A stretch of 64,000 bases of DNA, taken from positions 14,756,001-14,820,000 of the forward strand of contig NC_086097.1 in NCBI RefSeq assembly GCF_963921235.1. The letters run 5' to 3'. A model generated the notes under the pieces. That model had not been told where the DNA came from and searched no databases. It saw only the letters and a list, made by a program, of their open reading frames with translations. The position numbers and the translations under genes are program-made. This document shows positions 53,756-57,062 of the stretch, piece after piece. Each line of letters opens with the position of its first letter. The stretch's first letter is position 1. The stretch comes from Mobula hypostoma. Its lineage: Eukaryota.

Positions 53756-56191
53756 ACCATATGGCAAGAACAAATTCTTTTGATTTGTCTGTTTCCACTG
53801 CCCTTGCCTCATTCCTGTTCACTGATTTGTAGATTGTAGTTCTTTCTGGCCAACATCTCCTTGTAGATATGCTTAGTGGTGGGGAGGATGATGGACTGGG
53901 CTGTATCCACTAGCTGTTGTAGGATTTTCCTTTCAAAGGCATTGGCGTTTCTATACCAGGCCATGAAGCAACCAGCCAATGTACTCTCCACCGTGCATCG
54001 ATAGAAATTTGTTAAAGTTTTAGATGACATGCCAAATCTTGACAAACTTCTAAGAAATCAGAGGCACTTCCTTGCCTTCATTGTAATGGCATTTATGAGC
54101 TGGATCCAGGACAGGTCCTCTGAAATAATGACACCAAGGAATTTAAATTTCATCTCCAATGAACATTTTGCATAGCACTGCTCATTATAATAAAAATGTA
54201 GTAAGCGGGAGTGATTTAAAAATAAAGCTCTCACAGTGAATACATAAAGCATTTGGCACATAGAATTTGGTAAATTGAATTAGGATCATGTACTCACAGA
54301 ACACTACAGAACAGACACAGGCCCTTTGGCCCATCTAGTCCATTCCAAATTATCTGTCTGCCTGGTCCCATTGATCTGCACCCAGACCTTAGCCCTGTAT
54401 ACCCTCTTAAGTGACTCTTAGATAGGTACATGGAGTTTAGAAAAATAGAGGGCAATGCAGTAGGGAAATTCTAGGCAGTTTCTAGAGTAGGTTACACGGT
54501 CAGCACAACATTGTGGGCCGAAGAATCTGTAAAGTGCTGTAGATGTCTATGTTCTATGTTCTATACCCCTCCCAACCATGTAACTATGCAAATTTCTCTT
54601 AAATGGTGCAATTGAACCTACATCCACCACCTCCACTGGCAGCTCGTTCCACACTCTCACCAACCTCTGAGTGAAGAAGCTCCCCCTCATGTTCTCTTTA
54701 AACATTTCACCTTTCTCCCTCAACCCATTCTAGTATTTCCCAACTTCAATTGAAAAAGCCTGCTTGCATTTGCCCTATCTATACCCCTCATAATTTTGTA
54801 TACTGTACCTCTATCAAATCTCCCCTCCGTCTTCTACGTTCTAGAGAATAAAGTCCTAACCTATTCAACCTTCCCCTATAATGCAAATCCTCAAGTCCTT
54901 GCAATTTCCTTGCAAGTTTTTTCTGTGCTCTTTTAACCGTATTTACATCTTTCCTGTAGCTAGCTGACCAAAAATGCACTCAATAGTCCAAATTAGGTCT
55001 CACCAACGCCTTGTACAACTTCAACATAACATCCCAGCTCTTATATTCAGTACATAGATTTATGGAGGCAAATGTGCCAGAAGTTTTCTTTATGACCCTA
55101 TCTGTCTGTGATACCAGTTTCAAGGAATTATGCATCAGTATTCCCAAGTCCCTTTGTACGACCACACTCCTCAGTTTACTGTGGAAGACCTACCTTGGTT
55201 TTTCCTTCCAATATACAACACCTTACACTTGTCTGCCTTAAATTCCGTCTACCATTTTTTCAGCCTATTTTTCCAGCTGGTCCAGATGCTGCTGCAAGCT
55301 TTGATTGTCTTTCTCGCTGTCCACTCCACCCTGAATCTTGGTGTCATCCACAAATTTGCTGATCCAGTTAACCACATTATCATTCAGATCATTGACATAG
55401 ATGTCAAACAACAATGGGCCCAGCACTGATCCCTGTGGTGCTCCACTAGTCACAGGCCTCCAGTCAGAGAGGCAACTATCTACCACCACTCGCTGGCTTC
55501 TCCCACAATGTCAATATCTAATCCAATTTACTACCTCATCTTGAATGTCAAGTGACTGAACCTTCTTGATCAACGTCCCATGCTGGATCTTGTCAAAGGC
55601 TTTGCTAAAGTCCATGTAGACAACATCTACTGCCTTGCTTTCATCAACTTTCTTGGTAACTTCCTCAAAAAACTCTACAAGATTGGTTAGACACAACCTA
55701 CCGTGCACAAAGCCATGCTGACCATCACTAATCAGTCCCTATCTATCCAAATACTTATATCTCTGGTCCCTTAGAATATCTTCAAATAACATTCAGGTTC
55801 ACCAGCCTAAACTTTTCTGGCTTCTTCTTAAAGCTTTTCTTAAATAACAGAGCAACATTAGCTATTCACCAATCCTTCAGCATCTAACCTGTGGCTAAGG
55901 ATGTTTTAGAGGGTGTATAGTTACAGGGTGTGAGGGAACATGTTGTCAAGCTTTGAGGATTTATCCACCTAAAATTTCCTCAAAACAGTAAATACCTCCT
56001 CCTCTACAATCTGTATGTGTTCTAGGACCTCGCTGCTGCTTTGCTTCACTTCTGTCCATCTGTTGAGTAAATACAGATACAGTAGAAAAAAATCCATTTA
56101 AGATCTCCATCATCTCTTTTGGCTCCACACATAGATGACCACTCTGATCTTCGAGAGGACCAATTCTGTCCCTTGCTATTCTTTTGCTCTT

Positions 56192-56749
56192 GTTGTTCTT
56201 GTTGTTCGTCCATCGTTGACGTCGATGAGGACCTCGACAACATAATGATGGTGTCGAGACTAGCGCGTGATTTGGATTTAAGTGAGGGAGAGTTGTGCAG
56301 CGTCAGCCTCACTCTCTCTTCCCAATTCCCATCTGGGTCCAGTGGCAAGACAGAGTCTAGACGGCTGGAGATGGAACTAGGCACAGTGGATGACCAGGAC
56401 ATCTGCTGTGTCTTGTCCTGCTCTACACGTTCCACGACGCTTGCAGAGACCGCCTTCTTGACTGTTGGACCTTCCATTGGTCTCGTCCGCTCAATCCGCC
56501 GGAGTCTGTCTTCACATGCTGGGATAGACAACTCCCTATCTCACCGAGGGTTTGAGACCCGTCGGCTACCCTCACCTGGTTTAGCCGGCTTGTCGAAGCC
56601 GTTGCCCAGGGTGTGGCCGCTGTCGCATGCAAACAGCTACGGGGAGCCACAGGTGAGAGCTGAGTGCCAAGTGGGGACCAAAGGTGGACTAACCGCCCTG
56701 AAAAGGACGCGACATGTTCCCCCACCAGAGGTGCTACCCCTCCCTGACA
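56192..56749 (-). mobile_element. Non-autonomous RTE-type retroelement (no ORF, (AAC)n-like tail)
   Basis: 12-bp TSD TCTTTTGCTCTT at 56180-56191 and 56750-56761; CpG-rich, so probably young; RTE assignment rests on recalled resemblance to RTE1 5' UTRs. Confidence 0.8.
56569..56740 (-). ncRNA. Candidate HDV-like self-cleaving ribozyme
   Basis: Manual fold gives P1, P2, P3, P1.1, P4 and J4/2 GCTAA with a C75-equivalent at 56584 (see findings). Confidence 0.65.
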
Positions 56750-57062
56750 TCTTTTGCTCTTAATATATCTGTCGAAGCCCTTATTATTCTCCTTCACCTT
56801 GTCTGCTAGAGCAACTTCATGCCTTCTTATAGTCCTCCTGATTTCTTTCTTAAATGTCCATTTACATTTCTTATACTCCTCAAGTACTTTATTTGCTACT
56901 CCCTGCCTACATCTGCTGTTCACCTCCTTTGTTTTCTTAACCAGGGCCTTCATAACTCTTGAAAACCAAGACTTCAATGAAGTGTAGTAAATATTCTATG
57001 AAGCCCATTTATATTAGTCAGCCAAATTGAAACAACTATATTTAGGTGACTAGGTGATGAAA

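Follow-up and report, generated by a model that had tools for sequence, protein, structure and literature searches.

The question raised by this locus is how a short, non-coding repeat comes to have a sharply defined 5′ end. The stretch analysed here (64,000 nucleotides of Mobula hypostoma contig NC_086097.1, positions 14,756,001 to 14,820,000; hereafter the window) carries on its minus strand one copy of a retroelement resembling a short interspersed nuclear element (SINE). A preliminary description of its letters had placed a variant HDV-like ribozyme (HDV, hepatitis delta virus), with an extra hairpin in loop L3, at the head of this copy. From the comparison of the copy with its relatives we conclude, with a probability of roughly 0.7, that an HDV-like ribozyme heads these SINE-like retroelements and that full-length members adopt a nested double pseudoknot in the order P1, J1/2, P2, P3, L3, P3′, P1′, J1/4, P4, J4/2 and P2′ (P, paired; J, joining; L, loop segments). 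The core and the L3 insertion of the preliminary description are right; its P1, its cut site and the status it gave to the window copy are wrong.

The window copy was correctly recognized as a short, young and non-coding retroelement, with target-site duplications on both sides and no open reading frame recognizable by Pfam. It differs from the majority sequence of its family, termed here the young family, in 10 of 538 columns, and ends with a (CAA)-like tail. For comparison of the 5′ ends, 29 other young copies were fetched; in 26 of them about 13 further 5′ nucleotides (GGGGTRTATGGGG) are present that are absent from the window copy, which starts at family nt 14 with family nt 1–13 missing. 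Because nt 1–13 are lost, the window copy cannot form P1, and this 5′-truncated member is, to judge from its sequence, probably dead.

The relatives fall into three families, all found in genome G000 (3.48 Gb), where only the 40 best candidates were scored for each query. The young family gave at least 4736 first-look candidates, and the best 40 of 4736 scored at 96–98% identity to the window copy; its element is about 573 nt long, with tails that vary in length and end in (CAA)n. The old family, which was reached through a chance partial match, gave 2383 candidates with an old copy as the query, and the scored copies are 74–82% identical to that query. It shares the 5′ end of the young family (L071–L073) and has a similar kind of 3′ end, with a length of about 490–515 nt. 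The third family was found with a pattern modelled on the core of a contig from another organism, GGCTCCNNGN{1,3}GCCACACCCC, which had seven matches in the genome and none in a reversed control: four (L075, L076, L078 and L079) were rejected as an unrelated repeat, two are old copies that have lost the L3 hairpin and one (L077) represents family 3. This family comprises at least 1135 candidates, of which the other 39 scored copies show 91–95% identity to L077, their starts mostly lying no more than a few nucleotides from one point; the element is about 467 nt long with a purine-rich tail, and a 9 bp duplication flanks the one copy that was read through. By BLAST, family 3 is alike to old copies only over nt ∼107–177, that is, over the core from P2 to P2′; the sole exception is a 63% match to one young copy over nt 1–177. 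The elements are SINE-like in having target-site duplications, (CAA)n tails, 5′ truncation and thousands of candidates, with no reverse transcriptase or endonuclease reading frame. As side observations, L077 borders a satellite array, ten or more tandem repeats of about 70 bp each, 90–96% identical to L077:1-79, lying just upstream of it (G000:C12:194625061-194625819), and contigs from at least four organisms (runs X1, X9, X10 and X13; query L003:1388-2160) carry the element or its relatives, the X1 contigs containing both the young (CC) and the old (AA) forms of L3 in a ratio of roughly 2:1.

The 5′ ends of the full-length members point to the position of P1. These members start with GGGGURU straight after the target-site duplication; 18 of the 29 other young copies begin exactly GGGGT[AG]TATGGGG, and the duplication directly abuts G1 in at least four of them (L005, L007, L018 and L028). 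Young nt 1–7, GGGGUGU, are the exact Watson–Crick complement of ACACCCC, the seven nucleotides between P3′ and the following GG. Because nt 1–7 pair with P1′, the predicted cut falls at element nt 1, 22 nt upstream of G56740 and in sequence that is absent from the window copy. In family 3 the corresponding helix is GGGGUAU with AUACCCC, again starting at element nt 1, so that in all three families the first base of the element is the first base of P1. A P1 of about 7 bp, with its 3′ strand directly after P3′, is thus present in full-length members and not in the window copy. The preliminary description had drawn a 5 bp P1 from the GGGGU at 56740, with a cut at G56740. That GGGGU is the third G-run of the family and pairs with CCCC in the predicted J1/2 hairpin; the P1 of the family is formed by nt 1–7, which the window copy lacks, and the G:U at the base of the 5 bp helix goes back to a private C-to-T change at a CpG, where 25 of the 29 other young copies have C. 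The caveat that 9 nt of element would lie upstream of the cut disappears once the cut is placed at element nt 1. As to P1′, ACACCCU was the right strand, named without sight of its partner, with only five of its seven nucleotides paired in that drawing. The stretch put forward for a cleavage assay (56790–56560) represents a dead copy, because the predicted cut site is missing from it.

Downstream of P1 the earlier assignment holds. Every motif listed in it was found by direct reading of the minus strand (Table 1), and the placement of P2, P3, L3, P1′, the P1.1 GG, P4, J4/2 and P2′ is maintained in three families, with compensatory changes. In full-length members the fold occupies the first ∼194 nt, with a J1/2 of 96 nt, a P2 of 10 bp, a P3 of 3 bp and a P4 of 6 bp; in the window copy a U at 56649 is unpaired between P2 and P3 and a single G at 56618 follows the L3 hairpin. 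All three family majorities agree in P3, in the U, the CC and the G of L3, in the two G that follow P1′ and in the J4/2 sequence GCUAAAC, and the variation falls in the middle of L3, the loop of P4 and the second half of J1/4 (GGGCAA, GGUACA and GGUAAA). The minimum-energy fold of 56750–56560 includes P2, the L3 hairpin and P4, with an ordinary energy (z = −0.51; 59 of 200 shuffles fold equally well). In each of the three families J1/2 (nt 8–103) is predicted to fold as a single long hairpin (z = −3.07, −2.42 and −1.95), even in family 3 with its different sequence.

Table 1. Window positions of the predicted ribozyme segments and of the insert that contains them.
Feature	Position	Strand	Details and basis
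J1/2 hairpin remnant (family nt 14–103), including GGGGU at 56740-36, earlier taken as P1	56660-56749	minus	Predicted fold
P2 5′ strand CUCUCACCUG (family nt 104–113)	56659-50	minus	Motif reading, family comparison
P3 5′ strand GGC	56648-46	minus	Same in all three family majorities
L3 proper UCCCCGUA, opening UCCCCG	56645-56638	minus	U, CC and G kept in all families
L3-inserted hairpin GCUGU, loop UUGCAUGCG, ACAGC	56637-19	minus	Motif reading and minimum-energy fold
P3 3′ strand GCC	56617-15	minus	Motif reading, family comparison
P1 3′ strand (P1′) ACACCCU	56614-08	minus	Family majority ACACCCC; partner nt 1–7 missing here
J1/4 GGGCAA	56607-56602	minus	Its first two G would pair with the L3 CC as P1.1
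P4 hairpin CGGCUU-CGAC-AAGCCG	56601-56586	minus	Motif reading, pair counts
J4/2 GCUAAAC, candidate catalytic C at 56584 (nt 179)	56585-56579	minus	Identical in three majorities
P2 3′ strand CAGGUGAGGG	56578-69	minus	Motif reading, family comparison
Young-element copy, 559 nt, SINE-like	56749-56191	minus	Spans family nt 14 through tail; 5′-truncated
Target-site duplication, 5′ copy, 11 bp, AGAGCAAAAGA	56760-50	minus	Read directly from sequence
Target-site duplication, 3′ copy, AGAGCAAAAGA	56190-80	minus	Adjoins the (CAA)-like tail; read directly

The extra hairpin was correctly described as an insertion into L3. L3 proper is UCCCCGUA in the young family, UCCAAGUA in the old family and UCCAAGC (7 nt) in family 3. 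The hairpin is present in the first two and cleanly absent from the third, which reads GGC-UCCAAGC-GCC; the plain 7 nt L3 of this sister family therefore supports the hairpin as an insertion within the loop. In a contig from another organism, likewise, GGC-UCCAAGC is followed at once by GCC-ACACCCC, and the sequence flanking the core is different on either side. What supports the L3 hairpin is that it is stable and that it occurs in two families and is cleanly missing from the third. Two old copies (L080:163-264 and L081:163-264) lack just this hairpin, one reading GGCTCCA-AGTCGCC and the other an AGCAGCC variant; each loss was probably a deletion between short repeats, which mimics the family 3 arrangement. 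The hairpin loop (56624-56632) holds the self-complementary hexamer GCAUGC, which could allow loop-to-loop pairing of two element RNAs; old copies mostly have GCAUGU, which may reflect CpG decay.

For the comparative test of the helices, 57 copies (29 young, 14 old and 14 of family 3) were projected onto the helix positions by anchors and counted by family. Copies without an alignable 5′ end (old L063, L064, L065, L067, L068, L080 and L081; family 3 L084 and L093) entered the P1 counts as gaps, L031 was excluded from every table and the MAFFT alignment of the three families (A1), which misplaces family 3 in P2, P3 and L3, was not used for pair counts. Between families there is one double change each in P1, P2 and P4, together with one wobble change. 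Pair 6 of P1 is G-C in 11, A.C in 16 and otherwise composed in 2 of 29 young copies, G-C in five and G-U in two of seven old copies, and A-U in 10 of 12 copies of family 3. Pair 8 of P2 is C-G in all young (29/29) and old (14/14) copies and G-C in 13 of 14 copies of family 3. Pair 2 of P4 is G-C in the young family (28/29) and C-G in the old family (10/14) and family 3 (11/14), and pair 5 of P4, the wobble change, is U-A in the young family (29/29) and U-G in the old family (11/14) and family 3 (14/14). When random substitutions were simulated in the 52 paired nucleotides, two compensated pairs among five substitutions (old versus family 3) had P = 0.0011; one compensated pair and none disruptive among three substitutions (old versus young with G at nt 6) had P = 0.0046, a value that omits one disruptive change added by the young majority with A at nt 6.

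A separate structure-pair count was made on the young and old families only (alignment A2). Here 94.2% of cells pair, versus 31.7–50.1% with slid partners. Cells changed on both sides number 36, versus 12.1 ± 2.7 after shuffling, and none of 500 shuffles attains 36; seven pairs have a double change, no excess over the shuffles (6.6), and the J1/2 part of the counted structure was derived from one of the counted sequences, which favours it. Young and old copies are separated by double changes at one pair of P4 and at three pairs of the J1/2 hairpin. Within P4, 27 rows have G-C and 10 have C-G at pair 2, and 29 have U-A and 11 have U-G at pair 5; the cells of P3 are 98.4% paired and those of P1.1 95.2% paired. 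Taken together, the two counts show double changes between families in P1, P2 and P4, and P3 and the L3 hairpin never covary. A single X10 contig (depth 3) has C-G at pair 5 of P4 (T>C at nt 166 and A>G at nt 173), which would be a further compensated state.

The rarity of the motif combination was assessed with a descriptor of our own, composed post hoc, which called for a P1 of 7 bp beginning with G, a P2 no shorter than 6 bp, a Watson–Crick P3 of 3 bp, an L3 that reads U-CC-..-G and may contain a hairpin, two G following P1′, a hairpin as P4 and C-N-AA in J4/2. It had 18 matches in 470,734 nt of loci, all of them element copies, and none in the 128,000 nt of both window strands, the window copy included; these results show only that the motif is rare.

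By the proposed mechanism, the element would be transcribed within longer host transcripts, and the ribozyme would cut just 5′ of nt 1, leaving an RNA whose 5′ end is the first base of the element. The reverse transcriptase of a long interspersed nuclear element (LINE), recognizing the 3′ stem-loops and the (CAA)n tail, would then copy this RNA into new sites, and the window copy would have lost nt 1–13 through incomplete reverse transcription. The fold conforms to rules published for related ribozymes: in R2 elements, the pairing of P1 with a P1′ that immediately follows L3/P3 determines the cut site, and the length of J1/2 lies between 23 and more than 700 nt (PMC3774820).

Several observations weigh against a functional HDV-like ribozyme. 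One or two unpaired nucleotides stand between P2 and P3, and two nucleotides (AC) follow GCUAA in J4/2; HDV is not known to have either a linker between P2 and P3 or nucleotides after a J4/2 of the GCUAA type. In searches of Rfam at E ≤ 10, no family of the HDV type was found in the window copy or in full-length young, old or family 3 elements, and the scan of the 64 kb window at gathering scores had no matches; at E ≤ 10 there were two unrelated matches near the site, and across the families only chance matches to long noncoding RNAs, microRNAs and small RNAs. HDV-like ribozymes are known from descriptor searches rather than from covariance models, for which a J1/2 of 96 nt is costly. In the young and old pair count there is no covariation between families in the L3 hairpin, and the comparison covers only three lineages, whose copies are neutral relics, so that each covariation counts as one event. 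At the cut site all three majorities have a G-C base pair (17 of 28 young copies, with G-U in three; 5 of 7 old; 10 of 12 in family 3), and not the G:U wobble. In HDV the G1:U37 wobble is described as specifically required, for full activity (PMC1874588; bioRxiv 10.1101/2022.09.22.508989). Moreover, the commonest young subfamily (16 of 29) has A at nt 6 and hence an A.C mismatch at pair 6 of P1, and for R2 and further HDV-like ribozymes mismatches in P1 have been associated with loss of in vitro cleavage (PMC3774820). In these A6 copies only the second GGGGUGU (nt 10–16) would give a perfect P1, and none of the 29 young copies starts at nt 10.

Several of these observations favour the strongest alternative, which we regard as unlikely: that the double pseudoknot is real and selected and that it no longer cuts, or never did, the 5′ end being set otherwise. 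Such a fold might bind the partner reverse transcriptase, protect the 5′ end or aid the last step of reverse transcription. It would accommodate the G-C cut-site pair, given the wobble required in HDV (PMC1874588), the linkers at P2/P3 and in J4/2, the absence of an Rfam match and an A.C-mismatch subfamily that has still spread with nt 1 as its 5′ end. What speaks for cleavage instead is the choice of positions that the families keep, namely the U, the CC and the G within L3, the GG that follows P1′ and the C with the ensuing AA in J4/2, which are those important for catalysis of the HDV type, and the coincidence of element nt 1 with P1 nt 1 in three families, which is predicted by cleavage and not by a binding site.

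An internal promoter would be another origin for the 5′ end and is considerably less probable still. According to this explanation the end is a transcription start (a Pol II initiator or a Pol III promoter; RNA polymerases II and III), and the likeness to HDV arose by chance in a G+C-rich leader, where three 5′ G-runs make pairing with a C-run easy; the ordinary fold energy of the window copy and the absence of Rfam matches agree with it, and an internal promoter and an HDV-like ribozyme are reported to coexist in L1Tc (PMC3383444). It leaves the compensatory changes in P1, P2 and P4 unexplained, and in about 600 kb the descriptor matches nothing but element copies. As to Pol III in particular, Rfam at E ≤ 10 gives no transfer RNA (tRNA), 5S, 7SL or small nuclear RNA family, ARAGORN finds no tRNA in a full-length copy and the young family has a TTTT run at nt 59–62. 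A run of four T would stop Pol III. No head derived from tRNA, 5S or 7SL RNA was found, and a Pol III SINE head is unlikely. The 5 bp P1 of the preliminary description (56740-36 with 56612-08, cut at G56740, nine element nucleotides upstream), although drawable in the window copy as five pairs with a G-U at the base, is highly improbable, since the 22 nt upstream of G56740 are kept in 26 of the 29 other copies, so that an RNA cut there would not be the template, and since its G-run lies within the J1/2 hairpin, its G-U is a private change and the family offers a 7 bp P1 elsewhere.

For the HDV-like ribozyme favoured here there are several known counterparts. HDV-like ribozymes free the RNAs of R2, RTE, Baggins and L1Tc elements from co-transcripts, and both LINEs and SINEs with such ribozymes are known (PMC6765202); the hosts of ribozyme-bearing LINEs in the papers cited are protists, insects and other animals. 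R2 and its derivatives (SIDEs) have a 5′ HDV-like ribozyme with P1′ directly after L3/P3 and a J1/2 that can be very long (PMC3774820), and the SIDEs resemble the present elements in being short, lacking a reading frame and keeping the ribozyme (PMC3774820; PMC3414825; PMC6765202). R2 inserts only in 28S ribosomal DNA and often takes its P1 from 28S sequence, whereas the elements described here are dispersed in thousands, with a wholly internal P1, and no autonomous element of like sequence was found for them. In the trypanosomatid L1Tc/NARTc/SIDER group, the ribozyme L1TcRz lies within the first tens of nucleotides, and the module is present in a LINE as well as in dispersed short elements (PMC3185411; PMC3383444; PMC4035085); it is a protist ribozyme of 77 nt that doubles as a promoter, in contrast to the ∼194 nt fold with a 96 nt J1/2 in a 3.5 Gb genome. 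RTE and Baggins elements and 'intergenic' HDV-like ribozymes are similar in having hundreds of copies with varied upstream and conserved downstream sequence, and the RTE and Baggins elements are promoterless and freed from host transcripts by the ribozyme (PMC6765202).

Genomic and antigenomic HDV share with the predicted fold the helix order, the 7 bp P1, the 3 bp P3, the GG after P1′ and the C of J4/2 (PMC1874588; PMC3774820) and differ from it in the cut-site pair, which is G-C here, in the 96 nt J1/2, in the linkers and in the L3 hairpin that two families out of three carry. SINE-like elements with a hammerhead ribozyme (schistosome Sm-alpha and retrozymes) are also short and non-autonomous, with an RNA trimmed by their own ribozyme (PMC6765202); they carry another ribozyme class and have tandem or circular life cycles, in contrast to the single dispersed copies with target-site duplications observed here. 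In the literature searched, by titles and the beginnings of abstracts, there was no helix in L3 of an HDV-like ribozyme, no conserved G-C pair at the cut site and no such module heading short elements of high copy number in a genome as large as this; key descriptor studies lie outside that literature, so this is no proof of novelty.

The wider reading is put forward tentatively, at somewhat less than even odds: several abundant SINE-like families of a large animal genome may be built on a portable HDV-type head in place of a Pol III promoter, and two of them may tolerate both a helix in L3 and a Watson–Crick G-C pair at the cut site. Were this true, such elements could spread from any host transcript, and descriptors that fix L3 and require G:U would miss the subclass, so that HDV-like ribozymes may be under-counted in large genomes. 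The principle is already known from HDV-like ribozymes at the 5′ ends of non-LTR (non-long-terminal-repeat) elements (R2, RTE and L1Tc). If cleavage were shown, the novelty would lie in a helix tolerated in the active-site loop L3, with the hairpin-less sister family as a natural control, in a family that keeps G-C instead of G:U at the cut site and in a module common to two or more short retroelement families that are otherwise unrelated and number thousands of copies in a 3.5 Gb genome. The system would offer a direct test of the tolerance of the HDV core. For annotation, a predicted ribozyme head would explain the sharp 5′ end of these repeats with no need for a promoter.

The preliminary description had proposed that the element could borrow an RTE enzyme. 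A partner LINE with the same head or tail was not found by BLAST with young and family 3 queries in the window and about 235 kb of loci; in the genome searches, the 40 scored candidates were always the short element itself. Two candidates were rejected. The first was a reverse transcriptase reading frame beside an old copy (L031), which belongs to a separate young LINE (98% identical) whose matches all begin at the junction. In L031:600-1250 (minus strand) a decayed old head, 70% identical to the young family, abuts this 5′-truncated LINE reverse transcriptase, which is 97–98% identical to 39 other copies; the junction is either chance nesting or a template-switch chimera. The second was a stretch with RNase H and zinc-knuckle motifs after an old copy (L074), which is missing from two further old copies; at L074:∼120-700, just after the old copy L072, it is a decayed LINE fragment in which RNase H and C-terminal zinc-knuckle motifs can be made out by eye in three frames.

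In the young element itself a sense frame opens with an ATG at nt 286 and runs for 96 codons up to the (CAA)n tail (L003:1773-2060, plus strand; about 56478-56191 in the window), and an antisense frame is open over all 572 nt (L003:1488-2059, minus strand); neither contains a Pfam domain above cut-off, the best match being DUF746 (E = 0.029). The insert in the window splits what appears, by eye, to be a single LINE reading frame (...YIKSKR / IARDRIGPLEDQSGHLCVEPKEM..., window 56761-56900 and 56100-56179, minus strand), and a LINE stretch like this interrupted frame is also present at L095:2060-2985.

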